Position numbers and translations under genes: made by a program. The notes below the pieces were generated by a model, which was not told where the DNA came from, ran no database searches, and saw nothing but the letters and a program-made list of their open reading frames with translations. This document shows, one piece after another, positions 49,679 to 64,000 of a DNA stretch of 64,000 nt. The stretch covers positions 416,001 through 480,000 of the forward strand of contig CAWFFN010000012.1 of assembly GCA_963815115.1 (NCBI GenBank), read 5' to 3'. The DNA comes from an uncultured delta proteobacterium. GTDB taxonomy: Bacteria > Desulfobacterota > Binatia > DP-6. The first letter of the stretch is position 1, and every line of letters starts with the position of its first letter.

Positions 49679-51112
49679 TCAGGTGCCCCCGCGATCGACG
49701 GGCGGGTTGCTCGCCCGTCGCAGCTCCTCGATCGCCTCGAGCTGCGCCGCGAACGGTGCCCAGTCGTCTCGTTCCGCGATCGCCGCCCACACCGCTTCGA
49801 CGTCGCCGATGAGCAGGGTGCACGGCGCCGCACGCTGCCAGTAGGGCAGCGCGAGGTGCGCGGGGTGTCGCGGCGTGTATTGCTCGAGGCGCCGGCGGAA
49901 CGTGCCGAACGCATGGCCCACATAGAGCGACGCCGCCGGGCTTTCCCGCGCGCGCGCTTCGCCGGCGACGCCGCCGTACCAGTCGAAGAAGAAGCGATCG
50001 AAGCCCGCGCGGCCGTCGCGGAGGAACTCCAGCGCCGCGACCACGAGACCCTCGTCCTCGTCGGGACCGATGGGACACAGGCCGAGGCGCGACAGGATCG
50101 CGCCGTGCAGGGCCCCGGTGAACGCCGCGTCGTACGTGGCGAGCGCCGACGCCAGCGTGCCGCCCGGGCTGAGGGGGGCCAGGGCATCGGCCAGCCGTGC
50201 GAGGTTCCAGTGCACGGTCGCCGGCTGGCGGCCGAAGGCGTAGAGGCCGCTCGGGTCGAAATAGGCGGCGACGAAGTCGGGGTCGAGGACGGGCAGGAAG
50301 CGATACGGGCCGTAGTCGAAGCTCTCGCCCGTGACGTTCATGTTGTCGGTGTTGAGCACGCCGTGCACGAAGCCGGCGGCCATCCACGCTGCGCACAGGC
50401 GCGCGCTCCGGACCGTCACCGCACGCAGGAATCCCGCCACCAGATCGGCGGCGCCGGCCGCCTCCGGCACGTAGTGCTCGACGGAGAACTCGACGAGGCG
50501 CCGCAGGCCGGCGACGTCGTCGTGGTAGCGCAGGCGCTGGAAGGTGCCGAAGCGGACGTGGGAGTGACCGAGACGCACCAGCACGGACGAGCGCGTGGGC
50601 GACGGCTCGTCGCCGCGCTCGAGCCGCTCGCCGGTCTCGAACAGGCTGAACGACTTCGACGTCGGGACGCCGAGCGCCTCCAGCATCGCCGTCGCCAGCA
50701 CCTCGCGGACGCCTCCCTTGAGGGTGAGCCGGCCATCGCCTCCGCGCGACCACGGCGTCTGGCCGCTTCCCTTGGTGGCCAGGTCGAGGAGCCGGTGATC
50801 CTCCACGTCGCGCAGCTGCGCGAACAGGAACCCGCGGCCATCGCCGAGCGCGGCGTTGTACACGTGGAACTGATGGCCGTGATACCGCAGCGCGAGCGGC
50901 TGCGTCAGGTTGTCGGGCAGCGGGACGAAGCGGGCGAAGTGGTCCTCCCACTCGGCTGGAGTGAGCTCGCCCAGGCCGACGCGATCCGCCCAGCGCTGGT
51001 TCCGATGGCGCAGGGTATGCTGCGGGAAGCGAGCGGGGATGACGGGATCGAAGAAGGCGTCGCCGAGCGCAGGATGGACGGGATCCGGCCGGTAGCGTGC
51101 CGCGACGGGCAT
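49679..51112 (-). CDS. selO: SelO/YdiU protein adenylyltransferase
   Basis: YHGHQF, LGDGRG, KGSGQTPWSRGGDGR, GFVHGVLNTDN, DYGPY. Confidence 0.93.
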   Translation of the reverse strand: MPVAARYRPDPVHPALGDAFFDPVIPARFPQHTLRHRNQRWADRVGLGELTPAEWEDHFARFVPLPDNLTQPLALRYHGHQFHVYNAALGDGRGFLFAQLRDVEDHRLLDLATKGSGQTPWSRGGDGRLTLKGGVREVLATAMLEALGVPTSKSFSLFETGERLERGDEPSPTRSSVLVRLGHSHVRFGTFQRLRYHDDVAGLRRLVEFSVEHYVPEAAGAADLVAGFLRAVTVRSARLCAAWMAAGFVHGVLNTDNMNVTGESFDYGPYRFLPVLDPDFVAAYFDPSGLYAFGRQPATVHWNLARLADALAPLSPGGTLASALATYDAAFTGALHGAILSRLGLCPIGPDEDEGLVVAALEFLRDGRAGFDRFFFDWYGGVAGEARARESPAASLYVGHAFGTFRRRLEQYTPRHPAHLALPYWQRAAPCTLLIGDVEAVWAAIAERDDWAPFAAQLEAIEELRRASNPPVDRGGT

Positions 51113-51723
51113 CAGAGCGACCGGCTGGCGATGACGATCCACAGCGGGTCCGCGTCGTGCGGCGAGCGGTCGAGCACGCGCGGCTCGTCGTAGCCGCCTG
51201 CGAGCTCGAGGTAGCGGCAGATGAGCGCCAGGCGCCCGCCGGGCTCGAGCGAGTGCCAGGCGGCGATGGCCTTGGTGGGAAACATGCGATGCGACGTGGC
51301 GACGACGTGGAGGCCGCCCGGCCGGAGCACACGGCGAACCTCGCTGAACACCTCGACCGGCCGGACGAGATACTGGATCGACACCGCGTTCACGACGGCG
51401 TCGAACACGCCGTCGTCCCAAGGCAGCGTCGGTGTCACATTGAGATCGCGGACGACGCGCTCGTCGAGTCGGGGGTTGCGCGCCAGCTCCTCGGCGTTCA
51501 TGCCGAGCCCCGCGACCGACGCGTACGGGACGTCGGCCGGCAGGTGGGACACCCACGACGACATCAGATCGAGAACGCGCGCGCCGGCAGGGATGCGCTC
51601 GCGATAGAGCGCCGTCAGGGCGGCGATCGTGGCATCGTCGATGTGGGTGACGAGGCGGGGGACGGCATAGAAGTCCGCGTCGGGCGATTCGTCGAGACGT
51701 CGAAAGAGCTCGGGAGGCAGCAT
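51112..51723 (-). CDS. Class I SAM-dependent methyltransferase
   Basis: FYAVPRLVTHID, VLDLMSSWVSH, GLGMN, RVLRPGG; TGATG overlap with selO. Confidence 0.88.
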   Translation of the reverse strand: MLPPELFRRLDESPDADFYAVPRLVTHIDDATIAALTALYRERIPAGARVLDLMSSWVSHLPADVPYASVAGLGMNAEELARNPRLDERVVRDLNVTPTLPWDDGVFDAVVNAVSIQYLVRPVEVFSEVRRVLRPGGLHVVATSHRMFPTKAIAAWHSLEPGGRLALICRYLELAGGYDEPRVLDRSPHDADPLWIVIASRSL

Positions 51724-51811
51724 CGGTTCTCTGCCATACCGCCGCCGCCGCCCGGAGGCGACCGCGGACGAGGACCTTGCGTCGGGTCGTGCGCGGCGTA
51801 CGGTGCCCGCC

Positions 51812-52321
51812 ATGGACGCCTACACGACGATCACGCAGTTCGCCAAGATGCTCGAGAACCTCGATCGCTGGCTCGCGGCGGGTGTCTCCTTCGCGGAGAG
51901 CAAGAAGTTCGACGCCGACGTGCTCGCGCGATCGCGGCTGGCGCCGGATCAGTACGAGCTCGTACGCCAGGTGCAAGCGGCCTGCGATCAGGCGAAGTAC
52001 GCCGCAGCGTACCTGTCCGGCCAGAAGGCGCCGTCACATCCGGACGGCGAGCAGACGGTCGCCGACCTGCGCGCGCGCATCAAGACGTGCCTCGAATACG
52101 TCCGGAGCGTGAAGGCTCCGGCGTACGCCGAAGCCTCGGCGCGGCGAGTCGCCCCGCCGTGGCTCAACGGAAAGTGGATCCGTGGCGATGCCTACCTGGC
52201 CGAGATGGCGGTGCCGAACTTCTACTTCCACGTGACGATGGCGTACGCGATCCTGCGTCACAACGGCGTCGGGCTCGGCAAGATGGACTTCATCGGCTCG
52301 CTCCCCATCAACGACGCCTGA
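51812..52321 (+). CDS. DUF1993 family protein (DinB-like)
   Basis: RLAPDQ..L.RQVQ.ACD.AK, PNFYFHVTMAYAILRHNGV.LGK.DF. Confidence 0.9.
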   Translation: MDAYTTITQFAKMLENLDRWLAAGVSFAESKKFDADVLARSRLAPDQYELVRQVQAACDQAKYAAAYLSGQKAPSHPDGEQTVADLRARIKTCLEYVRSVKAPAYAEASARRVAPPWLNGKWIRGDAYLAEMAVPNFYFHVTMAYAILRHNGVGLGKMDFIGSLPINDA

Positions 52322-52393
52322 TCGCGGCCGGCAGTTGCTGGTCGAGGATCGGCGCTGCGTTCCCGTGGCCTCGCGCAGGGCCCGATCGTGCGA

Positions 52394-53470
52394 TCAGGCG
52401 ATGACGCTTCGAATGACCTCGCCGGCTTCCATCGCACGGAAGGCGTCGTTCACGTCCTCGAGCTTGATCGTCTTCGATACCATCGACGAGATGTCGAGGC
52501 GGTCGGTCTCGATCAGCTCGACGAACCGGGGAAAGTCTCGCCGCACCTGCGCCGAGCCGTACTTGCTGCCCTTCACCGTCTTCTGCTCGTAGAAGATGCC
52601 GAAGGCCGGTAGCGTGAACTGCGCGTCGAAGCGTGCCATGCCGACGATGATCACGTCGCCACCGCGGCGGGCGAGGTTGTACGTCGTGACGATGGTCTCG
52701 GGGAGGCCGATCACCTCGAACGCATAGTCGACGCCACGGCCTCCCGTGAGCGCCTTCACCTGCTCGACGGGATCGCCGACCGACGGATCGATCACGTCGG
52801 TGGCGCCGAGCTGCGTCGCGATCTTGCGCTTCAGCGGCTGCGGGTCGATCGCGATGATGCGCCCGGCCCCGGCGATGCGCGAGCCTTGAATGACGGCCTG
52901 GCCGACGCCGCCGCAGCCGAGAACGGCGACGGTCGCGCCCGGACGGACGCGCGCCGTGTTCAGGGCCGCCCCGACACCGGTGGTGACCCCGCAGCCGATG
53001 AGCGCCAGCTGCGCGTCGGGCACGTCGGTCTCGACCCTCACCACGGACGCCTCGTCGACCGTCATGACGTTGGAGAAGGTCCCGAGCCCCGTCATGCAGA
53101 AGTACGCGCCGCCGTCGGGGCGACTCCCGCGCATCTGCATCGCGATCTCGTTCTCACGGTCGCAGAGCTCGCTCTGCTCGCGGAGGCAGTGCCAGCAGGT
53201 GCCGCACGCGGGCACGAACGACGCGACGACGCGGTCTCCCTTCCTGACGCGGGACACCTCGGCGCCCACCTCGGCGACGCGCCCGGCGCCCTCGTGACCG
53301 AGCACCATGCCGGGCGGCACGGGCACGTAGCCGCGCATGATCGACAGGTCGGAATGACAGACGCCGCTCGCCCCGATCTCGACCACGACGTCGCGCGGCC
53401 CGGGGGGGTTGGGCTTCAGCTCCTCGATCGCGAGGCTCTTGGGATCTCCGACGTAGACGGCAGCCTTCAT
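52394..53470 (-). CDS. Zn-dependent alcohol/aldehyde dehydrogenase, class III-like
   Basis: GVCHSD, GHEGAG, CGTCWHC..C, GCGVTTGVGA, GCGGVG. Confidence 0.92.
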   Translation of the reverse strand: MKAAVYVGDPKSLAIEELKPNPPGPRDVVVEIGASGVCHSDLSIMRGYVPVPPGMVLGHEGAGRVAEVGAEVSRVRKGDRVVASFVPACGTCWHCLREQSELCDRENEIAMQMRGSRPDGGAYFCMTGLGTFSNVMTVDEASVVRVETDVPDAQLALIGCGVTTGVGAALNTARVRPGATVAVLGCGGVGQAVIQGSRIAGAGRIIAIDPQPLKRKIATQLGATDVIDPSVGDPVEQVKALTGGRGVDYAFEVIGLPETIVTTYNLARRGGDVIIVGMARFDAQFTLPAFGIFYEQKTVKGSKYGSAQVRRDFPRFVELIETDRLDISSMVSKTIKLEDVNDAFRAMEAGEVIRSVIA

Positions 53471-53762
53471 GCGTTCCCTCCAAAGCACTGGACGTGCGGT
53501 CGCACCGTAGACCGTCTCGCGGCGTTCGACCAGTGCCGCCCGGCCGGGCGGACCGGCCTCCGCGGGGCCGACGGGCTCCGGGCCGCGAACGCGCCTGGGG
53601 GGGATCGGGCGCCGGCATGGTGGCGCACGCGAGGCTCGCCGGCACGAGGCAAGCGAACGCGCGCCGCGTGCTCGGAGGTCGCAGGCATCGTCGCTGGACT
53701 CCCGGGAACGCGCGCGGCATAGCACGCCGCGCGAGGCGAACGTCAGACGAAGGGGAACGCGC

Positions 53763-55145
53763 GTGGGTGACGACGACTGGAAGCGCTATCCATACGTGCC
53801 CGAGTGGGGCGATCCCTCGTGGTTCACCTTGCCGGACGCCGACGGCCATCGAGCCGATCTCGGCGTCGCGACGTACTTCATCGACGGCTTCCTCCGCGGC
53901 CGGTCCAGCGGGCGATCGTTCGCGTTCATCGTCATCTTCACGGACATGCGCGTGCTGCGGAAGCTCGTGCGCGCGAGCTTCTACACCCTCGCGCTCTACG
54001 ATCTCGATCGCCGCCACTACGGGACGTACACCGAGTACGACTTTCCCCGGCCGCCGCGCATCCGGCGTCGCTACAAGGTGCACGCCGTCCCGGGTCACCT
54101 CGCGCTGCGCTTCGATGCTTCGGCGGGAACCGCCCGCTGGGAGCAGCGTCGCGACGCGCGGGGCGATCTCGTGCCCTTCGCGTGGGACGTCGCGCTGCCC
54201 GGCATCGATCACCACGGCGAGCGGATGTCGCTCGAGCTGGCCATCGACGCGGGGCGACCGCCCGCCCCGCTGGGTGGCCGCCTGCTCGGCGGCGAGATGA
54301 TGTTCCTCGGCGCGCCGCGCACGTTCTCGTACTTCCAGAGCGGTCTCACCATGCGCGGCCGTCTGGCGTGGGGCGCGCACGCGGAGGACGTCGAGGGCCA
54401 GGTGGGGTGGATCGATCGCCAGTGGGCTCCGGACGACTTCACGGCGCACCAGGACTGGCGCTCGACGCGTTACCGCAGCGAGTGGCGGGTCATCCAGCTC
54501 GACGACGGCTGGGACATGAGCTGCTTTCACCAGTACCAGCGTGACGTGCGGAACGCGGTCGTGCCGTGGACCGGTCTCTCGGCGCAGGGGCCCTCCCCCG
54601 GGTTCGAGCTGCGCGCGACCCCGGACGTCCTGCTCACGATCCCCGAGTTCATCCGGAGCCCGGGGATCGTCCGCGCCATGTCGATGCTCACCGAGGGGCC
54701 GCGCTGGTTCCCGCATCGCTACCGCCTGCGCGCGCCGGCGTGGGACCTCGACCTGCAGGCCGAGCCCCTGGTCGACGCCCCCGCCCACGGCCTGCCGATC
54801 GAGTACTGGACCGGGCCCGTCAGGATCAGCGGGACGCATCAGGGGCGAGCGGTCTCCGGCTGGGGATTCGACGAGCGCAGCCGGCCATGGGTGCACGGCC
54901 ACGAGCTGGCGCGCGCCCTCCGGCTGACGGTCGAGCACCTCGACGACGTCGACCCGACGCTCCGGGAGCGCATCTGCTACCGCGCCCGCGAGGTCGAGGG
55001 CCTGGCGCTGCGTGGCGATCCGCGGGCTGCGGCGGACCACGCGCGCCGACACCTCGAACCATGCATCGACGCCGGGACCGCACGGGCACGGGCCCTGCTG
55101 GACGACCTGTTGGTCGCGTTGTCGGGACGCTTCGTGACCCGCTGA
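53763..55145 (+). CDS. CrtC/AttH-like lipocalin-fold protein
   Basis: FSYFQS, GWIDRQW, YWTGPV.I.G..G.GFDE double-barrel motifs. Confidence 0.6.
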   Translation: MGDDDWKRYPYVPEWGDPSWFTLPDADGHRADLGVATYFIDGFLRGRSSGRSFAFIVIFTDMRVLRKLVRASFYTLALYDLDRRHYGTYTEYDFPRPPRIRRRYKVHAVPGHLALRFDASAGTARWEQRRDARGDLVPFAWDVALPGIDHHGERMSLELAIDAGRPPAPLGGRLLGGEMMFLGAPRTFSYFQSGLTMRGRLAWGAHAEDVEGQVGWIDRQWAPDDFTAHQDWRSTRYRSEWRVIQLDDGWDMSCFHQYQRDVRNAVVPWTGLSAQGPSPGFELRATPDVLLTIPEFIRSPGIVRAMSMLTEGPRWFPHRYRLRAPAWDLDLQAEPLVDAPAHGLPIEYWTGPVRISGTHQGRAVSGWGFDERSRPWVHGHELARALRLTVEHLDDVDPTLRERICYRAREVEGLALRGDPRAAADHARRHLEPCIDAGTARARALLDDLLVALSGRFVTR

Positions 55146-55233
55146 CGCCCTAGTTGCGGCGGCGCCAGCCGCTGAGCCGTCTCGACGAACGGCGCTCCCA
55201 CCCGACCGGCGGTTTGGGCTAGAGTTTCCGTGC

Positions 55234-57417
55234 ATGGCCCTGGTTCTGCCGGACACGGCGGAGGAGTTGCGCAGCGAGCTGAGCGACCTGATCGTGCGCC
55301 GCCTGCGGATCGGTCTCCGCGCATTCTTGGCCGGGGTGGTGCTCTTCGTGGTGGCCGATCACTCGCTGATGACCGTCACGCCACGGTGGGCGGACGGGTT
55401 GAACGCCGTCCTGATTGCGCTGGCGGCGATCTTCCTCGCGCTCTCCCGTCGGCCGGCGTTCCGCGCCCACGCGGTTCCGTTGGCGCTGCTGATCGTCGCG
55501 ATGATCTGCGGGTCGCGCGCGCTTGCCGGCATCTGGACGGGTGATCTCGTTCCCACCGCGATCGTGTGCCTGGTGGTGGCCCTCACCGCCGGCGCGTTCC
55601 TACCGTGGGGGGCGTGGCCGCAGCTGGCTTCGGTCGCCATCGCCGGGCTCGCGATCGCAAGCAATGCCTACCTGATCTCCGGCACGTCCGCCCACGCGAC
55701 TGCTCAGCTCGTCGCCGCCGTGTTCACGGCGTTGATGGTGTCGGCCGTGCTCTCATTCGAGCTGCAGCGCAACCACAGTCGCCTCGTCGAGGAGAACATC
55801 CGGCGCCGTCGTGCCGAAGATGGCCTCGCACGGCTCAATGCCGAGCTCGAGTCGAGGGTGAACGCGCGCACCGCCGAGCTCGCGGCCGCCACGCAGCGTC
55901 TCGAGCGCGAGGCGCTCGAGCGCCAGCTGGCGACGCAGGGACTCCGCGAGAGTCAAAAGCGGCTGCAGGACATCCTCGACAATGCCCCGGCGGCGATCTA
56001 CCTGAAGGACGTCGACGGACGCTACCAGCTCATCAACCGCCACCTGGAGACCGCATTCGGGATCCGGCGCGAAGATGCGGTCGGGAAGACCGGCCATGAC
56101 CTCTTCCCATCCGAGGTGGCCGATACCCTGCGAGCCAACGACCAGAGGGTTCTCGCGGCACGACAGCCGATGCAGATCGAGGAGACGCTGCTGCCGCGCG
56201 GCGAAGCGCGTACATACCTGTCGGTGAAGTTCCCGCTGCTCGACTCGGCTGGTACGCCGGTCGGACTGTGCGGGATCTCCACCGACATCACCGACATCAA
56301 GCAGACGGAGGCCGAGCTGCGACGCTCCGAGGCGGCTCTCTCGGCGCTGGTCGAGAACAACACGGACGCGATCTGGTCGGTCGACCGCAAGGGCGTCGTC
56401 ACGGTCATGAACGCGGTCGCGCAGAGGCGCTTCCGCGACCGCTTCGGTGTCGAGTGCGACCCTCTGAACTACGGGGCGCAGATGGCGGAGCCCATCCGGA
56501 CGATGCTCTTCGAGCTGTTCGAGCGCGCCTTTCAGGGCGAGCACGTGCAAGTCGAAAGCTCGATACCGAGTGAGGGTAGTGATCGGTACTTCCTGCTGTC
56601 GATCCATCCGATCGTCGAAAACGGCGCGGTCACCGGTGCGACGGCGTTCAGCAAGGACATCACCGAGCGCAAGCGCGCCGAGGAGCAGGTGCGGCAGCAC
56701 CAGGCCCACCTCGCGCACGTGTTGCGGCTCAACACCATGGGTGAGATGGCGGCGGGGTTGGCGCACGAGATCAACCAGCCGCTCGGCGCGATCGCCAACT
56801 ACGCGCAAGGCTGCACCCGGCGCCTGCGCGGCGGGTCGGTCGACGGCGCGGAGTTGTTGCCGATCGTCGAGGAGATCGCCCACGAAGCGCTGCGCGCCGG
56901 CGAGATCATTCGCCGGCTGCGCGATCTGGTGCGAAAGGAGGGGCCCCATCAGGCGGCGGTGGATCTGAACGCCCTGATCCGCGAGTCGACCCGAATCATC
57001 GGGTCCGAGGCGCTGCAAAACGGTATCCGCGTGGAGCTCGCGCTGGCGCCCGACCTGCCGCCCGTGACCTGTGACAGCATCCAGATCGAACAGGTCCTGC
57101 TCAATCTCCTGCTCAACGGCGTCGAGGCCGTGCAGACCGCGGGCAACGGAGAGCGCTCGCTGACCATCACCACCGCGGCGGCGGGCGCGGCGGGCATCGA
57201 GGTGGCAATCCGCGACAGCGGCGGCGGGGTTCCCGACCCGCCCGCGGACGTCTTCAAGCCCTTCTTCAGCACCAAGCCGAATGGCCTCGGCATGGGCCTC
57301 TCGATCAGCCGGTCGATCATCGAAGCCCACGGCGGTCGCCTGTGGGCGACGCGCAACGCCGACCACGGCAGCACCTTCCGCTTCACCCTGCCGCTGGAGC
57401 GCGCTCCGGCGGCGTGA
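55234..57417 (+). CDS. Membrane-bound sensor histidine kinase with two PAS domains
   Basis: About 5-6 TMs, PAS-PAC ending STDITD and KDITERK, H-box AHEINQPL, N/G boxes, GMGLSIS. Confidence 0.93.
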   Translation: MALVLPDTAEELRSELSDLIVRRLRIGLRAFLAGVVLFVVADHSLMTVTPRWADGLNAVLIALAAIFLALSRRPAFRAHAVPLALLIVAMICGSRALAGIWTGDLVPTAIVCLVVALTAGAFLPWGAWPQLASVAIAGLAIASNAYLISGTSAHATAQLVAAVFTALMVSAVLSFELQRNHSRLVEENIRRRRAEDGLARLNAELESRVNARTAELAAATQRLEREALERQLATQGLRESQKRLQDILDNAPAAIYLKDVDGRYQLINRHLETAFGIRREDAVGKTGHDLFPSEVADTLRANDQRVLAARQPMQIEETLLPRGEARTYLSVKFPLLDSAGTPVGLCGISTDITDIKQTEAELRRSEAALSALVENNTDAIWSVDRKGVVTVMNAVAQRRFRDRFGVECDPLNYGAQMAEPIRTMLFELFERAFQGEHVQVESSIPSEGSDRYFLLSIHPIVENGAVTGATAFSKDITERKRAEEQVRQHQAHLAHVLRLNTMGEMAAGLAHEINQPLGAIANYAQGCTRRLRGGSVDGAELLPIVEEIAHEALRAGEIIRRLRDLVRKEGPHQAAVDLNALIRESTRIIGSEALQNGIRVELALAPDLPPVTCDSIQIEQVLLNLLLNGVEAVQTAGNGERSLTITTAAAGAAGIEVAIRDSGGGVPDPPADVFKPFFSTKPNGLGMGLSISRSIIEAHGGRLWATRNADHGSTFRFTLPLERAPAA

Positions 57418-57495
57418 CCGCCGTCGGCTCGGGTCCCGCCTGCTCCGGGACGCATTCAGGCGCGCGTCGACGACCCGCCGGATCGGGGCCGCGCG

Positions 57496-58788
57496 TCACC
57501 CGGCCGCACGGTGGACCGCGCGGCTGTCGGCCTTCGCGTCCGACACGGACTCCTCGCCCATGCAGAGCTGCCCGATCGCGATCGCGACCAGACCCGCGGC
57601 CGAGACCGCGAGGTTGCCGCTGCTCTCCGCGATCAACATGGCCGTACCGACCGGAAGGCGGTAGCCCGCGCCGAGGAAGCACGCGGCGCCGAGAAGCGGG
57701 TACACGCTCGTCCCGTCGTGGACGAGCGCGGCCACGAGCTGGCCGATGAACGCGCCACAGGTCGCGAGCGCCGTGAACACCCCGCCCCCGCCTCCGCCGT
57801 ATACGCACGTGAGCGTGGCGGCGGCCCGCACGGCGAGCACGACGGCCGTGAGCCACACGGGACGGGAGGCCGCGAACAGCCAGTCGACGGCCACGTAGCC
57901 CGGGCCGAAGGTGACCCATTCGCCCGCCAGCGCGTGTCCGGCCCACGTCAGGCCGGCCAGCACGGCGCCGGCGACCGCGGCGCGCTCGAGCCGGCTCCGG
58001 CCCCGCGCACGGCGCTGCAGTCCCATGTCCACGTGGGCGAACAGTCGAGCCCCGATGCCGCAGGCCAGCGCGACCAGCCCGACCGCGGCGACGAACGTGA
58101 CGTCCACGGTCGGCGGCGCCCCGCCGAGCGCCACGAGGTGACGCGCGCCGATCAGGCTCCGGCGCGTGACGTAGGACGCGGCCGCCGCCACCGCGCAGGG
58201 GATGAACGGTCGCGCGTCGAGGTCCCGCCGGAACGGCACCTCCATGCCGTAGAACGTCCCGAGCGCTGGCGACGAGAACACCGCCGCGATCCCCGCGCTG
58301 GCGCCGGCGACCATCAGGGAGCGCGAGTCGGCGGGCTCGAGCCGCCACCAGCGAGCGTGTCCCAGGACGTCGCCCATCCCGGCACCCATGAGCGCCGAGG
58401 GCGACTCGAGCCCCTGGGCGCCGCCGAACCCGACCGTGGTCGCGGCCGCCAGCACGCGCCCCGGCAGCTGTCGCAGCGGGATGCGGCCCTCCGGATCCCG
58501 GTAGGTCTCGATGTAGAGCTCGGCCGTCGACGGTCGGGCCACCCGCGTGACCCGGACGGCGACCGCGAGCGTGGCCAGCAACGCGAGCGGTGCGAGCGCC
58601 ACCGGCACGAGGCCGGGAAGCGCGGCCAGCCGTCCGAGCGCCTCGCCTTCCACGACGGCGGTCGCGAGGGCCACGCACGCCCCCGTCAGCACGCCGAGCA
58701 GCCCGGGCGCGAGCAGCAGGAGGGCGACCCTCCGCCCGATCTGCGCGCGCGGCGCCGGTGACCGAGAGATCTCCACCGCGCGACGCAC
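57496..58788 (-). CDS. CLC chloride channel family protein, no CBS domains
   Basis: GLESP (GREGP-like), AGASAGIAAVFSSP, GGVF; many TMs. Confidence 0.82.
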   Translation of the reverse strand: MRRAVEISRSPAPRAQIGRRVALLLLAPGLLGVLTGACVALATAVVEGEALGRLAALPGLVPVALAPLALLATLAVAVRVTRVARPSTAELYIETYRDPEGRIPLRQLPGRVLAAATTVGFGGAQGLESPSALMGAGMGDVLGHARWWRLEPADSRSLMVAGASAGIAAVFSSPALGTFYGMEVPFRRDLDARPFIPCAVAAAASYVTRRSLIGARHLVALGGAPPTVDVTFVAAVGLVALACGIGARLFAHVDMGLQRRARGRSRLERAAVAGAVLAGLTWAGHALAGEWVTFGPGYVAVDWLFAASRPVWLTAVVLAVRAAATLTCVYGGGGGGVFTALATCGAFIGQLVAALVHDGTSVYPLLGAACFLGAGYRLPVGTAMLIAESSGNLAVSAAGLVAIAIGQLCMGEESVSDAKADSRAVHRAAG

Positions 58789-58854
58789 TAGAAGAGGAGT
58801 TCGCGCGCACGGTCAACCGGGCACTCCGGTCGCGCACGACCTGGCCCCTGCCGG

Positions 58855-60051
58855 TCACGTGACCGGCAGCGTGAACTGGAACGTGCAGCCCTCGCCGGCT
58901 GCGCTGTCCACCCAGATGCGGCCGCCGTGCCCTTCGACGATCCTGCGGACGATGGCGAGGCCCAACCCCGTACTGGGCTCGCCGGCGGTCCCGCGAACGC
59001 TCAGCTTGCTGAATGGCCTGAACAGCTTCGACATGTCCGCCGCGGGAATTCCCTGACCCTCGTCCTGCACGGCCACCGTCACCGCCTCGCCGGAAGGCGT
59101 CATCCGGACCCGCACCCTCGTGCCGCGATGGGAGAACTTGACGGCGTTGCCGATGAGGTTGTTCAGCACCTGCTCGATCTTGCCGGCATCGACGGGGACC
59201 TTCGGGCACGGCGGCGGCGGGTCGAATTCGACGGTGATGTCCTTCTTGGCGGCGAGCACGCCGTTCAGCGTCACGTTGCGACGGATGAGCTGGGCCACGT
59301 CGGTGAGCTGCCGGTCCAGCTTCAGCTGGCCCGCCTCGATCGCCGTGACGTCGAGGATGTCGGTGACCATCCGGAGCATGAACTGGCTCGTGTCCTTGAT
59401 CGTGGTGATGAACTCCCGTTGCTCCTCGTTCAGGACCGAGGCCGCCTCGCTGTCGAGAAACTCGGAATAGGTGAGAATGACACCCAGCGGGTTGCGCAGA
59501 TCGTGCGCGGCGATACCCAGCAGGCGGTTCTTCTGCTCGTTCAACCGCTCCAGCTCGACGTTCTTCTTCGCCATCTCGCGCTGCAGGTTCACCATCTCGT
59601 TGTTCAAGGCGGTGAGCTCGTCGTAGACGTCGGCGTCGCGCCCGGCGCGTTTTGCCACCGCAACGGACAGCTCCTTGGCGGTGGCACGCGAGACGTTCGC
59701 CTGCTCGTTGTTGATGCGCATCAGCTGGTCGTTCATGTGGGCCAGGCCATTGCGAGATTGCGCCGCCAGGATCAGGAATTCGTCGTCGACCAGTGCGCCG
59801 GCAAAATGGAGCGGCATCAGCGTATCGTCCACCGCGACGGTCATCTCCCAGTCGTACGCCGCCTGCCGGGTCTGCAGCTCCGCCAGGAACCGGCCGAGCT
59901 TCTCTCGCACGCCCGGATCCACCATGTCGGCGACGTGATGCCCCGCAGGGACGCGCCCCGACAATCCCAGATCGTCCCGCACGATCCGCCGGACGATGCC
60001 GTCGCGATCGCAGGCGAGGACGATGCCCCGCTCCGCGACATCCGGACTCAT
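58855..60051 (-). CDS. Cytoplasmic histidine kinase (PAS-like domain, coiled coil, HisKA, HATPase)
   Basis: AAHDLRNPL, QVLNNLIGNAVKFS, DEGQGI, GLGLAI; ATGA overlap with the upstream gene. Confidence 0.92.
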   Translation of the reverse strand: MSPDVAERGIVLACDRDGIVRRIVRDDLGLSGRVPAGHHVADMVDPGVREKLGRFLAELQTRQAAYDWEMTVAVDDTLMPLHFAGALVDDEFLILAAQSRNGLAHMNDQLMRINNEQANVSRATAKELSVAVAKRAGRDADVYDELTALNNEMVNLQREMAKKNVELERLNEQKNRLLGIAAHDLRNPLGVILTYSEFLDSEAASVLNEEQREFITTIKDTSQFMLRMVTDILDVTAIEAGQLKLDRQLTDVAQLIRRNVTLNGVLAAKKDITVEFDPPPPCPKVPVDAGKIEQVLNNLIGNAVKFSHRGTRVRVRMTPSGEAVTVAVQDEGQGIPAADMSKLFRPFSKLSVRGTAGEPSTGLGLAIVRRIVEGHGGRIWVDSAAGEGCTFQFTLPVT

Positions 60052-61118
60052 GCCCCTTGCTCCTCCACCATCTGGCTGGCGAGTGCGATTGCCCGTTGCG
60101 CGTCGAGCGCGGAACCATCGGCGCCGACGTTCCGCCACAGATCGGGATCGCGGTTGAACGGATAGCCTCCCGTCAGAATCTTGACCGGGCGAGCGGCGGG
60201 ATGCCGTCGCACCGCGCGGATCAACTGCCGGACGGCCTCCACGTGGTAGGGGATCGTGGCCGAGATCGCCAGGACCTCTGCCTGGCGTTCGGCGATGATC
60301 GCGATGACGCTGGCGTGGGGCGTGTTCGCACCCAGGTAGTACGTGCTCCAGCCCTCCATCTCGAAGAAGTCGGCCACCATGCGCACGCCGATCTCGTGCA
60401 GGTCGCCGGCCACACCGGTTGCGATCAAGGTGCGCCCGTTCTTGGCCGTCGCGAAGACGTACGGGTAGAGCTGCGACATGATGAGCTGGGTGGCCGCCGT
60501 GCAGAAGTGTTCCTCCGCCACGGTGATGCGGTTGGTTTGCCACAGGCGGCCGATCTCGTACTGCGCTGGCTGGAAGACGTGCAGGTACACCTCCTTCACC
60601 GGCACGCCCCCCTCGACGGCCTCGAGCACGAGCCGGCTCGCCACGTGGCGCTCGCCCCGGCGCAACGCCGCGAAGTATTGGTGCGCCAGCGGCGAGAGCG
60701 GCTCGCCCGGGTTCAGGAACGTCGGGAGGTCGTCCGGCATCGCCGGCATCGCCTGCACGGCGGCCGTGACGAAGGCGACCGCGAGGGCGGCGGCGTCGTC
60801 GGGCAACCGCTCCCGGAGCACCTCCGCCAGGCAGCCCAGGTGAAAGGCGAGGTCGGTGGCCAGCACCTTGCGCTGGCTCAGGACCACCTTCACCCACGCG
60901 ACGTAGTCGACGAACAGCCCCTGGTTGTTCAACGCGAGCGCCTGCGCCAGGAACGAGAGATGGTAGCCGGCATCCTGGAGCGACTTGTCGCGACCGCTCG
61001 GTCCGTAGCGTTGCTCGAGCTCGGGGTGACGCGCGAACTCGCGTTCGACCAGTGCCGCCGCGATCTCGGTCCGTTGCCCGAGGAGGGCTTCGCTGGCCGA
61101 CACGTGCATGGATTCCAC
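60048..61118 (-). CDS. Cobalamin-binding protein with N-terminal globin-like domain (photocobilin-like)
   Basis: W-x9-EH (WQTNRITVAEEH), DLHEIG, LGANTP, ISAT, GGY; helical N-terminal domain RYG..RDKSLQDAGYHL..FVDYVAW. Confidence 0.82.
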   Translation of the reverse strand: MESMHVSASEALLGQRTEIAAALVEREFARHPELEQRYGPSGRDKSLQDAGYHLSFLAQALALNNQGLFVDYVAWVKVVLSQRKVLATDLAFHLGCLAEVLRERLPDDAAALAVAFVTAAVQAMPAMPDDLPTFLNPGEPLSPLAHQYFAALRRGERHVASRLVLEAVEGGVPVKEVYLHVFQPAQYEIGRLWQTNRITVAEEHFCTAATQLIMSQLYPYVFATAKNGRTLIATGVAGDLHEIGVRMVADFFEMEGWSTYYLGANTPHASVIAIIAERQAEVLAISATIPYHVEAVRQLIRAVRRHPAARPVKILTGGYPFNRDPDLWRNVGADGSALDAQRAIALASQMVEEQGA

Positions 61119-61125
61119 GGCGGCG

Positions 61126-61497
61126 CTACGAGCCCACGTGTTCGAAGAGTCTCAGGTAGGTCTCCCCCGACGCGAGCTTCAGGCCCTTGGGAATGCCCCG
61201 GTGCGAATCACGATAGCCGTGCCCGCGATGCCAGGTGAGGAAGCTCGTCTCGTTCGCCCAGAAGGTCAGCAGCCAGATCTCCTCCGGGCGATCGACCGGG
61301 CTGATCACCTCCATGCGACGGTACCCCGGCGCCCGGTCCACCAGATGCGGCCGGTCGCGAAACGCGGCCTTGACCTCCGCGGTCATGCCGTTGGCGATGA
61401 CGAAGCGGCTGAGAGCCACGAACCCCGGCGCGGGCTCCGTTTCCCCGTACGAGGGGCGCACGCTCTCGTGCGGCAATGCGCGTGCGTTCGAATCCAC
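61126..61497 (-). CDS. ABM-family protein resembling IsdG/HmoA heme monooxygenases
   Basis: SRF..AF.DRP.LVD..PGY..MEV..W..E.SF..W..SH; start uncertain (61461 to 61551). Confidence 0.78.
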   Translation of the reverse strand: MDSNARALPHESVRPSYGETEPAPGFVALSRFVIANGMTAEVKAAFRDRPHLVDRAPGYRRMEVISPVDRPEEIWLLTFWANETSFLTWHRGHGYRDSHRGIPKGLKLASGETYLRLFEHVGS

Positions 61498-61732
61498 GAG
61501 GTGCTTCTCCCGGGCGAAACGCGTCTCGAGCGCGTTGCGCGGAAAATACATGTCAAACCGCGTGAGGGCCAGCGGGTGCTGGATCACAAATGTAGAGACG
61601 AATCGATGCGCGACGACGAGCACCACCCTGGCGCACGATCGACCGCGCTGCTGCGCCGCGTCCGCAGCCCTCCACTCGGAGAACGGTGTGCGCTTCGTTG
61701 ACAACCGCCCTGGGACCCGGCTCGATGCTCCG

Positions 61733-62974
61733 ATGCGCCGCGCCGGCCTCCTCGCCATCCTCCTCGCGCTCGCCGCCTGCGGCGGCCAGAGCGGACCGCC
61801 CGAGTCGCCCGCCAAGGCCTCTGCCACGCCCCCGCGGCGCGACCCGCTCGCCGGCGGACCGTACCCTGCGATCCTGGTCGCGCAGGCGCAGTTCACCGAG
61901 GGCAAAGGTCCCGACGGCAAGCCGGCCGCGATCCCGGGCGCGGCGAAGCTGCTCGTCGTCCGCAAGACGGAGAGCGGCTGGAAGCCCGCCGTGCTCGAGG
62001 ATCCGGACAGCAACGTGTTCCACAAGGCGCTGCCCTGGGACGGCGGCATCCTCACCATCGGCGGCAACCAGGCCCTGCTGCGCACCTGGCGCTTCGCCGA
62101 TGGCCACTGGGTCGCGGACACGCGCTGGAACCCGAAGTTCGGCGGCAAGTTCGATCGCCTGCGCGACGTCGAGCGCGGCGACGTCGACGGCGACGGCAAG
62201 GACGAGCTGGTGATCGCGACCCACGATCAGGGCGTGATCGCCGTGGTCCACCCCGACGACGGCTGGCGCGTCGAGGAGGTCGATCGGACCCCGGACACCT
62301 TCGTGCACGAGATCGAGATCGGCGACGTCGACGGCGACGGCGTGAAGGAGTTCTTCGCCACGCCGAGCGCGCCGAACAAGCTCGAGTCGGAGCAAGCCGG
62401 CGAGGTGCGGATGTACAAGCACACCCCGCAGGGATGGCAGAAGACCATCGTCGACGCGCCGGGCGACACGCACGCCAAGGAGATCCTCACCGCCGACGTC
62501 GACCGCGACGGCGTGGCGGAGCTGTACGTCTCGTGGGAAGGGGCGGTGGGCGCGGGCAACACCCTGGTCCGTCCGGTCACCGTCAAGCAGTATCGGTGGA
62601 GGAACGGCGCGATCGAGAGCGCCGTCGTCGCCACCGTGCCCGATCGGCTGATGCGGGCGATGGCCGCCGGCGACGTCAACGGCGACGGCTCGATCGACAT
62701 CGTCGCCGGCGCTCTGTCGTCCGGGCTGTGGCTCTTCGAGCAGGTCCCCGGCGGCTGGAAGAAGAACCTGATCGACGTCGGCTCGTCCGGCTTCGAGCAT
62801 CCGGTCCTGCTCGCCGACCTCGACGGTGACGGCGCGCTCGAGATCTACGTCGCCTCCGAGGATCAGGGAGAGCTGCGGCAGTATCGCTGGCAGGACGGCA
62901 GATGGGAGAAGACCGTCCTGATGCCGCTGCCGAAGGGCGACATCACGTGGAACCTGAGCGACGCGCGGCTCTAG
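61733..62974 (+). CDS. FG-GAP/VCBS repeat lipoprotein
   Basis: LAAC lipobox; five G/A-D-V/L-D/N-x-D-G repeats. Confidence 0.85.
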   Translation: MRRAGLLAILLALAACGGQSGPPESPAKASATPPRRDPLAGGPYPAILVAQAQFTEGKGPDGKPAAIPGAAKLLVVRKTESGWKPAVLEDPDSNVFHKALPWDGGILTIGGNQALLRTWRFADGHWVADTRWNPKFGGKFDRLRDVERGDVDGDGKDELVIATHDQGVIAVVHPDDGWRVEEVDRTPDTFVHEIEIGDVDGDGVKEFFATPSAPNKLESEQAGEVRMYKHTPQGWQKTIVDAPGDTHAKEILTADVDRDGVAELYVSWEGAVGAGNTLVRPVTVKQYRWRNGAIESAVVATVPDRLMRAMAAGDVNGDGSIDIVAGALSSGLWLFEQVPGGWKKNLIDVGSSGFEHPVLLADLDGDGALEIYVASEDQGELRQYRWQDGRWEKTVLMPLPKGDITWNLSDARL

Positions 62975-62984
62975 CGGAGGCCGC

Positions 62985-63998
62985 TCACTGGTTGCACACG
63001 AAGTCCGCCGGACAGCTGCCGGTGCACAGCGAATCGGGCTGCTTGGCCTGCGGCCACCAGTCGTCCACGCAGCAGCTCAGGCGCGCCATGGTGTCGGCGT
63101 AGATGCCGTCGGGGCGCGACAGGTCGTAGGCGACCGTACCGGTCCCCTCGCCGCCGGCGTGCAGTCCGCGCTCGTCCGGGTCGAGGAAGAGATCGGTCAT
63201 CTCGAGCGTCGGCTCGTCGACGTAGACCTTCAGCTGGCGCGCCTCGCAGAGCCGGCCGCAGGGTGCGGCGGTTCCGCCCGGTCCCGTCGGGCATGCCGGG
63301 CAGTCCTCGCGCGTGTCGCAGCGGACGCCGGGCGCGTTGCGGCACCACCTGGTCTCCTTCTCCACGCAGGCATAGTGCTTGCCGAAGAAGAGCGACGCGC
63401 ACGTACCGTCGTCGATGCAGGAAGGGGCCATGCGGCAGCGGCCGCCCAGGCAGAGCGCGCCGCCCGGGCAGCTTCCGTTCCCCGAGCACGGCGGTTCCAG
63501 GCTCGCTGCGCAGTGCCCGCCGAGGCAGCTCAGACCGGCTCCGCAGTCGGTGTCCGTGGCGCACGCCGGCGCATCCAGGTTGGTGCAGCGGCCGACGCTT
63601 CCCGGGCGGGTGAGCAGATAGCGCAGCTTCGTCGGTGCCGTCGGTCGCTTGGTGTGGTGACCGCACAGGGCGTGGCGCAGCGGGGCCGTGAAGGCGCCGT
63701 CCGGGCTCGACGTCGCGAGATAGGGCCGCAGGTCCTTCCCGTCGCACCGCGTGCCGTCGGCGCTGGCCGGGCAGGGCACGGAGCCGGGAGTCCCGAGCGC
63801 GAGGCCGAGGGCCGTCGGCAGGACGTCGGTCGAGTGCGCCAGCTCGAACCGCTCGTTGGCCGGCGGAGGCGTCTGCGTGATCCCGTCCCATCCCGGAACG
63901 GCCGGCAGGGTGCGCGGGTCGAAGACGAGCATGCGCGTACGGTAGCCGTTCTCGGTGAAGGCGTGCTTCGAGTTCGGCAGGAACCAGCCGTTGTCCGA
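62985..63998 (-). CDS. Sulfatase-like hydrolase C-terminal part with Cys-rich insertions; 5' end lies outside the window
   Basis: Hand translation upstream of the tracked ATG gives SDNGWFLPNSKHAFTENGYR; also DVLPT, DGKDL, DLFLDPDE. Confidence 0.72.
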   Translation of the reverse strand, partial: SDNGWFLPNSKHAFTENGYRTRMLVFDPRTLPAVPGWDGITQTPPPANERFELAHSTDVLPTALGLALGTPGSVPCPASADGTRCDGKDLRPYLATSSPDGAFTAPLRHALCGHHTKRPTAPTKLRYLLTRPGSVGRCTNLDAPACATDTDCGAGLSCLGGHCAASLEPPCSGNGSCPGGALCLGGRCRMAPSCIDDGTCASLFFGKHYACVEKETRWCRNAPGVRCDTREDCPACPTGPGGTAAPCGRLCEARQLKVYVDEPTLEMTDLFLDPDERGLHAGGEGTGTVAYDLSRPDGIYADTMARLSCCVDDWWPQAKQPDSLCTGSCPADFVCNQ

Positions 63999-64000
63999 CA

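Follow-up and report, generated by a model that had tools for sequence, protein, structure and literature searches.

Photocobilins, in which a CarH-type B12 module is joined to a bilin-binding, phycobiliprotein-like globin (photoglobin), have been characterised through SasPcob and AbDPcob (PMC10979010; PDB entries 8J2W, 8J2X and 8J2Y), and photoglobin-B12 sensors with the globin before or after the B12 domains were predicted in PMC8717448, together with kinase, ABM monooxygenase and heme oxygenase neighbours. PMC8717448 ties the oxygenases only broadly to the sensing or degradation of flavin, antibiotics or heme, and in PMC10979010 stand-alone photocobilins are proposed to work via protein contacts. 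Here we describe a three-gene locus of this kind in a 64,000-nucleotide stretch (the window) from an uncultured delta proteobacterium of the class Binatia (assembly GCA_963815115.1, contig CAWFFN010000012.1, positions 416,001 to 480,000). The kind of sensor, both domain orders, the neighbours and action in trans are already published or predicted; the new parts are a dedicated ABM subfamily with Ser at the position of a catalytic Asn, also linked to phytochromes, and a predicted docking helix in the partner protein. With somewhat better than even confidence, we read the three genes as a portable light-sensing cassette in which the ABM protein would make a bilin, the photocobilin would sense light and the kinase helix would receive the signal.

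Read from the window sequence, the three open reading frames (ORFs) are co-oriented on the minus strand in the order ABM protein, B12 protein and kinase, with the following features:

61126-61551, minus strand: ABM/IsdG-fold protein of the Ser type, 141 aa from the first ATG (Pfam PF03992, E 6e-10)
60048-61118, minus strand: stand-alone globin-first photocobilin, 356 aa (best PDB sequence match SasPcob, E 4e-29)
60753-61118, minus strand: photoglobin domain, sensor residues 1-122, from structure and profile matches (Asp49, Trp75, Ser46)
60063-60713, minus strand: CarH-type adenosylcobalamin module, four-helix cap plus Rossmann domain (W193, E203, H204, H241; Pfam B12-binding_2 and B12-binding)
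58855-60051, minus strand: soluble histidine kinase, 398 aa, with an unclassified N-terminal domain, a coiled-coil region, HisKA (173-241) and HATPase_c (288-397)
59554-59637, minus strand: predicted conserved docking helix of the kinase, residues 139-166, at the interface of a predicted complex (Asn150 and Arg158 invariant)

The tight packing claimed in a preliminary description of this DNA is borne out by the ORF coordinates: 7 nt (61119-61125, assuming a GTG start) separate the ABM and sensor genes, and the sensor and kinase genes share an ATGA overlap at 60048-60051. The conserved core of the ABM protein is its last 100 aa (61129-61428), its true start codon being uncertain. The GC content of the three genes is 0.66-0.68, slightly under the 70% of the genome, and that of third codon positions is 0.88-0.90 for the cores.

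The preliminary description had assigned CarH-type adenosylcobalamin motifs to the middle protein, and direct reading of the sequence confirmed W193-x9-E203-H204 and D239-x-H241-x-x-G244. Gln194, which it had singled out at the position following the Trp, is indeed present, but was dropped as a distinguishing feature since SasPcob also has Gln for CarH His132. The reported absence of a helix-turn-helix (HTH) domain holds as well: no HTH family was matched in Pfam, and NF052513 reached 51 bits against a cut-off of 400. The protein thus has neither the MerR-type HTH nor the His after Trp of CarH/LitR repressors. The AlphaFold model of the sensor (pLDDT 90.2, pTM 0.84) showed that residues 1-122 align with allophycocyanin 8or7 (Z 15.5, rmsd 2.2, 121 aligned residues), and a profile of this domain matched allophycocyanins (E 2.5e-7) as well as the SasPcob globin (E 6.7e-7), which confirms the suspected globin/phycobiliprotein-like fold. 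Over the B12 module the model matched the photocobilins 8j2y and 8j2w (Z 26.6 and 26.2); because the domain order is reversed, the aligners superposed solely this module on 8J2W, and a packing of the globin against the corrin edge as in SasPcob is possible.

Residue equivalences were counted along the SasPcob alignment with a numbering offset of +6, an offset that also fits W61, E71, H72, H108 and H137. W193, E203, H204 and H241 correspond to SasPcob W61, E71, H72 and H108, and D49 and W75 to Asp270 and Trp296, whose bilin-binding roles are taken from PMC10979010. Among the best 80 of 304 confirmed sensor relatives, which make up our set of genome loci, the four B12-module residues are kept in 80/80, D49 in 77 and W75 in 79. 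The phycobiliprotein attachment Cys at position 46 is Ser here, and is Cys in 40 of the 80 genome relatives and 53 of 69 metagenome copies; the CXQD motif was already noted in PMC10151467, and the C46/D49 pocket is shared with the photoglobin operons of PMC8717448, as are the two-component, ABM and heme oxygenase neighbours. With a CarH-type B12 module bearing W-x-EH and D/ExH motifs and a fused phycobiliprotein-like globin bearing the bilin-binding Asp, the middle gene is, on sequence and model features, a globin-first photocobilin, of a type known from publications of 2021-2024. In one relative (L062), what looked like a fusion of sensor and kinase was dismissed as an assembly gap of Ns.

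Like SasPcob and AbDPcob, the protein combines B12 cap, Rossmann domain and photoglobin, and has Gln after Trp, the bilin Asp and Trp and, in this copy, no attachment Cys (PMC10979010). Unlike SasPcob, it is globin-first, an arrangement that PMC10979010 knows from predicted models only; the His137 homodimer contact is absent, the clade-specific surface residues Gln211, Tyr218 and Phe222 are not in the SasPcob alignment, and half of the relatives have the attachment Cys. It also has a natural partner and a putative pigment enzyme alongside, whereas the in-trans action shown for SasPcob was on a foreign cyclase only (PMC10979010).

For the upstream gene, the Pfam ABM match was confirmed, and the protein has the ABM ferredoxin-like fold of the IsdG family, aligning with IsdG 1xbw and MhuD 4nl5 at Z 12.3, level with other ABMs. 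In alignment with TT1380 and B. subtilis HmoB, its Ser48 falls on their Asn, and its Trp107 and His117 on their Trp and His, so that the alignment upholds the earlier description of an ABM protein with the IsdG-type Trp and heme-ligand His but Ser for Asn; Phe64 and Arg67 are also retained. In a search that did not select on Ser, Ser48 was present in 119/119 homologues and Trp107 and His117 in 118/119 each. The likeness to IsdG/IsdI, MhuD, HmoB, HmuQ/HmuD and LFO1 therefore extends to the ABM fold, the triad Trp and His and the Phe23 and Arg26 positions, whereas these heme oxygenases differ in having the Asn; the Ser-type ABMs are linked to photoreceptors, not to heme uptake. Given that Ser replaces the triad Asn throughout, we do not file the protein as an IsdG-family member, though a similar working is still possible, and it scores far under NCBIfam cut-offs (HmuQ, 36 versus 130 bits).

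A close ABM homologue lies directly upstream of the sensor in 54 of the 80 genome loci and divergent from it in one (L054, an inversion), hence adjacent in 55 of the 78 testable loci, two (L059, L068) having too little upstream DNA. Among ABM-less loci, L060 keeps an ABM remnant and L022 has a distant ABM, also with Ser at the Asn position. The reverse test started from the best 80 of 422 confirmed metagenome matches to the ABM, requiring at least 250 nt downstream, which left out 11 contigs as too short; a sensor lies within 400 nt of the ABM in 63 of the 69 contigs. The other six contigs have a sensor at 520 nt, a convergent globin fragment, a bacteriophytochrome (two contigs, L127 and L150), a response-regulator kinase and an HD gene. 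That the ABM gene is conserved with the sensor-kinase pair, the point on which the earlier proposal had been made to depend, is thus supported from both sides: ABM, sensor and helix-bearing partner occur together in 50 of the 80 loci, and this conservation of the trio is far beyond chance. No fourth conserved gene was found across the 80 loci, and a plasmid search for the ABM returned just distant Thermus ABMs. A solitary Ser-type ABM (L193/L136) stands beside an HD-domain gene after ATP synthase genes, with no photoreceptor found in that genome. Judged by their sequences, these proteins are a dedicated, photoreceptor-linked and apparently new ABM subfamily in which Ser invariably takes the place of the IsdG Asn, and the ABM protein is probably a bilin-making heme oxygenase.

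Two further candidate signals were not retained. Loss of the bilin pocket where the ABM is absent was rejected, since Asp49 is kept in 23 of the 25 ABM-less rows. Arg83 occurs in 48/55 ABM-bearing versus 6/25 ABM-less rows and Cys46 in 34/55 versus 6/25, differences from which we draw nothing because the ABM-less rows cluster on the sensor tree, itself a quick tree. A genome-wide anticorrelation of ABM and heme oxygenase (1/55 versus 4/25, Fisher p 0.03) was set aside because the rows are related, the oxygenase of G032 belongs to a phytochrome and the upstream DNA of L059 is cut; G032 is the only one of the 80 locus genomes with a phytochrome, and is uninformative.

Since the reverse test had met bacteriophytochromes, the link is of interest in genomes too. 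The phytochrome-linked ABM type has been recorded from Chthoniobacterales; when 401 genomes of this order were searched for it, 9 matched, and in 4 of these the Ser-type ABM flanks a PAS-GAF-PHY bacteriophytochrome gene with an N-terminal Cys, 3 being co-oriented within ~60 nt and 1 divergent. Of the other five, 3 have the ABM before a photocobilin (with 4 copies in all), and the remaining two have a solitary and a broken ABM. Together with the two metagenome contigs, these pairs (L188, L189, L191, L192; L127, L150) place the ABM at the usual bphO position, and 3 of the 4 genomes have no match to the heme oxygenase family PF01126. A quickly built ABM tree of 43 rows, with 21 near-duplicate loci excluded, groups the phytochrome-linked ABMs in a single clade (SH-aLRT 86) next to a copy linked to a photocobilin, which indicates a single recruitment. 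An even sample of 401 Verrucomicrobiota genomes yielded the seed genome only. The converse exchange was seen in two ABM-less, Syntrophaceae-like genomes, where a PF01126 heme oxygenase is divergent from the sensor (L067, 6165-6749; L074, 6150-6740); these are sister rows, hence one replacement event, and theirs are the only two of the 80 sensors with His after Trp as in CarH. In the fourth of the phytochrome-linked Chthoniobacterales genomes, G950, a single frame of 487 aa joins a heme oxygenase to a photoglobin-like domain (L198/L199, G950:C6:154646-155608).

A putative chromophore-making gene beside a bilin-binding protein recalls bphO-bphP operons, and clusters of heme oxygenase, globin and B12 protein are known as BBAG-2/pre-PcyA clusters (PMC10151467). 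Unlike both, the present locus has an IsdG-fold protein in the slot of an HO-1-fold oxygenase, in a host without a bilin reductase match. Stand-alone H-NOX proteins are likewise soluble tetrapyrrole sensors encoded beside a cognate kinase or cyclase, regulating a soluble effector in trans; the cassette sensor differs from them in fold, cofactor and signal.

The third gene encodes a HisKA histidine kinase (HisKA and HATPase_c in Pfam) with the phospho-acceptor His183 in the H-box. In agreement with the earlier description, no transmembrane segment is apparent, there being no long hydrophobic stretch by sequence reading alone, without a predictor. The N-terminal part has no Pfam family over the cut-off and no significant PDB sequence match; no PAS was among the 25 listed of 39 weak Pfam families (69 members), hhalign to one PAS sequence gave a probability of 0.1, and the proximity to HNOBA/PAS clusters by atlas features (0.88-0.90) is a lead only, the PAS assignment being unconfirmed.

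Just before the DHp domain of this kinase lies a helix of ~28 residues that recurs in the gene next to the sensor at 73 of 78 testable loci (union of tblastn and HMM matches; five without it, two cut by the contig edge). The Pfam-scanned partners, 26 of the 77 downstream genes called, are mostly kinases; the helix also occurs on SpoIIE (L005), a HisKA_3 kinase (L078) and multi-PAS kinases, in small stand-alone proteins (L065, L069) and before PAS-GGDEF (L168), and it persists where the N-terminal domain is lost (L002, L003, L011, L051, L071). Whether the partner is a kinase, SpoIIE or a stand-alone protein, Asn150 and Arg158 do not vary. In the sample of 201 genomes of the host phylum, 9 of 10 helix matches adjoin a B12 module (that of G254 does not), and the host genome has a single copy, within the operon.

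A complex of two sensors with two copies of kinase residues 96-175 was then predicted alongside 3 controls. It scored 0.65 against 0.00 for the best control, a level that 116 of 157 solved complexes attain, as do 2 of 215 mismatched pairs; these figures apply here only approximately (own alignments, doubled chains). The runs share at least 65% of contacts, partner pLDDT being 50-54, and a sequence search found no solved relative of the partner region. The predicted interface joins kinase 139-166 to sensor 199-223, 240-246 and 260-265, that is, the Glu-His helix and its flanks; in SasPcob this helix is shifted by light and lies along the dimer interface (PMC10979010). Conservation is higher at the interface than elsewhere in the module (0.89 versus 0.69), and Phe222, the top contact, is missing in four rows only, all among the five partner-less loci; the helix was not found elsewhere in those five genomes, in a search without a positive control. 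The four (L013, L015, L023, L040) are a sensor clade without partner helix and without Phe222. As a prediction, the model supports binding of the sensor to the helix. Signalling in trans to the kinase, as first suggested, thereby gains a candidate structural basis, but the partner is not always a kinase, and its constant part is the short helix.

In four loci (L065, L069, L070, L077; Adhaeribacter and a Cytophagales metagenome-assembled genome) the partner is a protein of 164-178 aa with no enzyme domain, followed in three by KaiC/KaiB; the cultured strains among them are practical test hosts. KaiC-like (9/80 loci) and KaiB (12/80) genes recur near the sensor in several phyla (e.g. L008, L014, L032, L043, L069, L070, L073, L076, L077), and light input to KaiBC-type switches is possible.

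The gene anatomy, folds, residue equivalences and co-occurrence are direct results, whereas we infer all of the chemistry and the direction of the signal, as follows. From gene context, the Ser-type ABM would use O2 to open heme, and the resulting bilin would most likely be biliverdin IX-alpha or something closely related. The photocobilin globin would hold the bilin non-covalently (Asp49, Trp75; Ser46 here) beside adenosylcobalamin. By homology to SasPcob, for which this was shown, green light, or red light via the bilin, would cleave the Co-C bond and shift the Glu-His helix. This helix is predicted to touch the coiled-coil helix just ahead of the kinase DHp, one sensor per side of the kinase dimer, so that light may alter docking and hence kinase activity, with the response regulator encoded elsewhere. 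Since the His137 homodimer contact of SasPcob is not conserved here, we slightly favour a dark-state complex that is released by light.

Several observations weigh against this scheme. The Asn belongs to the defining catalytic triad of IsdG, and its change to Ala reduces activity (PMC6018153, PMC5557675); characterised IsdG/MhuD products are staphylobilin or mycobilin; and Arg26, whose loss yields biliverdin in MhuD, is invariant in Ser-type ABMs. Of the 25 ABM-less genomes, which are metagenome-assembled, of unknown completeness and many from anaerobic groups, 21 have no PF01126 match, yet 23 retain Asp49. Among the 80 loci there is no recurrent gene for a reductant partner, each swap (ABM to phytochrome, heme oxygenase for ABM) is by its phylogeny a single event, G950 has the ABM in addition to its heme oxygenase-globin fusion, and G896 carries an ABM with no photoreceptor found in the genome. 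As for docking, interface conservation arises partly because some positions bind B12, the four rows that lack Phe222 belong to a single clade, and L044 retains Phe222 without a partner. The IsdG fold is, for its part, able to give biliverdin: biliverdin IX-alpha is the product of MhuD-R26S (bioRxiv 10.1101/731950), and the review PMC6449446 reports biliverdin formation for HmuQ/HmuD.

It is unlikely, though worth serious consideration, that sensor and docking work as proposed while the ABM is a weak or dead tetrapyrrole carrier passing heme or scavenged bilin to the photoreceptor. The invariable loss of the catalytic Asn and the lack of a linked reductant gene would fit, MhuD binds biliverdin with nanomolar affinity (bioRxiv 10.1101/731950), and a carrier would be equally sensible beside a phytochrome. 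The heme-ligand His, Trp, Phe and Arg are all retained, however; the host and 3 of the 4 phytochrome-linked genomes show no other oxygenase, and a true heme oxygenase holds the same slot in L067/L074.

We also consider it unlikely that the cassette reports cofactor or O2 status rather than light, a bilin requiring heme and O2, with bilin or cobalamin occupancy switching docking in the dark. Many carriers come from Anaerolineae, Syntrophaceae and Syntrophobacteraceae, which we take to be anaerobic or sediment-dwelling, and 19 of the 25 ABM-less rows lie within one such clade. In SasPcob, bilin occupancy alters dimerisation and flips the sign of in-trans regulation, but photoconversion was seen in both characterised photocobilins (PMC10979010); the complete W-x9-EH photoreceptor signature is invariant, and the ABM serves a red-light phytochrome too.

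It is quite improbable that the ABM serves iron scavenging or detoxification like any IsdG-type enzyme, with mycobilin- or staphylobilin-like products, and only accompanies a B12-only light sensor. In favour of this reading, its closest relatives of characterised function take part in iron acquisition, 25 loci have a complete sensor but lack this ABM, and AbDPcob is functional at ~20% bilin occupancy (PMC10979010); against it, members of the subfamily hardly ever occur apart from a photoreceptor that binds bilin, and no heme-uptake cluster was recognised among the ORF clusters present in at least three of the 80 loci (judged from sequence starts, some Pfam-scanned). We hold it highly improbable that the sensor has other targets and that the conserved kinase helix is just a coiled coil of the kind common in signalling proteins: the low partner pLDDT, the G254 match and the five sensors whose genomes gave no helix match point that way, but surface residues Asn150 and Arg158 stay invariant across effectors even where the N-terminal domain is lost, the docking controls scored 0.00 and the host has its one helix copy in this operon.

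Regarding the proposed light-sensing cassette in its host, the genome (100% complete) has no PF01126, phytochrome (PHY) or bilin reductase match. It encodes a PduO adenosyltransferase, three methylmalonyl-CoA mutase matches and a CarH-like protein with MerR-HTH, B12 domain and W-x9-EH motif (G000:C8:757600-757965), which makes use of adenosylcobalamin plausible. The cassette is patchy: of the 201 genomes of the host phylum, 2 match the ABM profile and 6 the globin profile, and none of these is the one same-family genome or any of the four same-class genomes in that sample. The nearest sensor relatives among the best 80 come from Verrucomicrobiota, Planctomycetota, Gemmatimonadota and Myxococcota, and together with the patchiness this indicates horizontal spread.

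Around the operon, a CLC chloride channel gene (57496-58788, minus strand) is co-oriented 66 nt downstream, with no recurrence among related loci, and a membrane PAS-PAS histidine kinase gene (55234-57417, plus strand) is convergent with it. An FG-GAP repeat lipoprotein-like gene (61727-62974, plus strand) is divergent from the operon, followed by the end of a Cys-rich protein (62985-64000, minus strand) with no Pfam match. By eye, no response regulator was recognised among the ORFs listed for 50000-64000.

The main text of PMC8717448, as far as accessible, differs from the present account in that the dedicated Ser-type subfamily, the phytochrome link and the docking helix are named here. We found no publication on the Ser-type ABM subfamily, an IsdG-fold phytochrome partner or the docking helix, in literature coverage short of subscription papers, and Fig. 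5 and the supplements of PMC8717448 may show such operons. More tentatively, and with rather less than even confidence, we propose that the Ser-type ABM may be a biliverdin synthase of IsdG fold, a second, unrelated chromophore route interchangeable with HO-1-type enzymes and used by photocobilins and phytochromes alike; that the helix may be a portable receptor placing any coiled-coil effector (kinase, phosphatase or cyclase) under green/red control; and that the Cys-bearing half of the clade may bind bilin covalently.

The photocobilin paper left open the bilin source and the natural targets of stand-alone sensors, and the cassette offers a candidate for each, both testable with three small soluble proteins. 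The ABM would be a natural Asn-to-Ser variant for studying product choice in the IsdG fold. If the assignments are true, a short transferable helix and a 100-residue pigment enzyme would provide a compact optogenetic kit for two colours, the occurrence of phytochromes in genomes where no heme oxygenase is recognisable would be explained, and an IsdG-fold supplier of photoreceptor chromophore would broaden a family known for iron scavenging.

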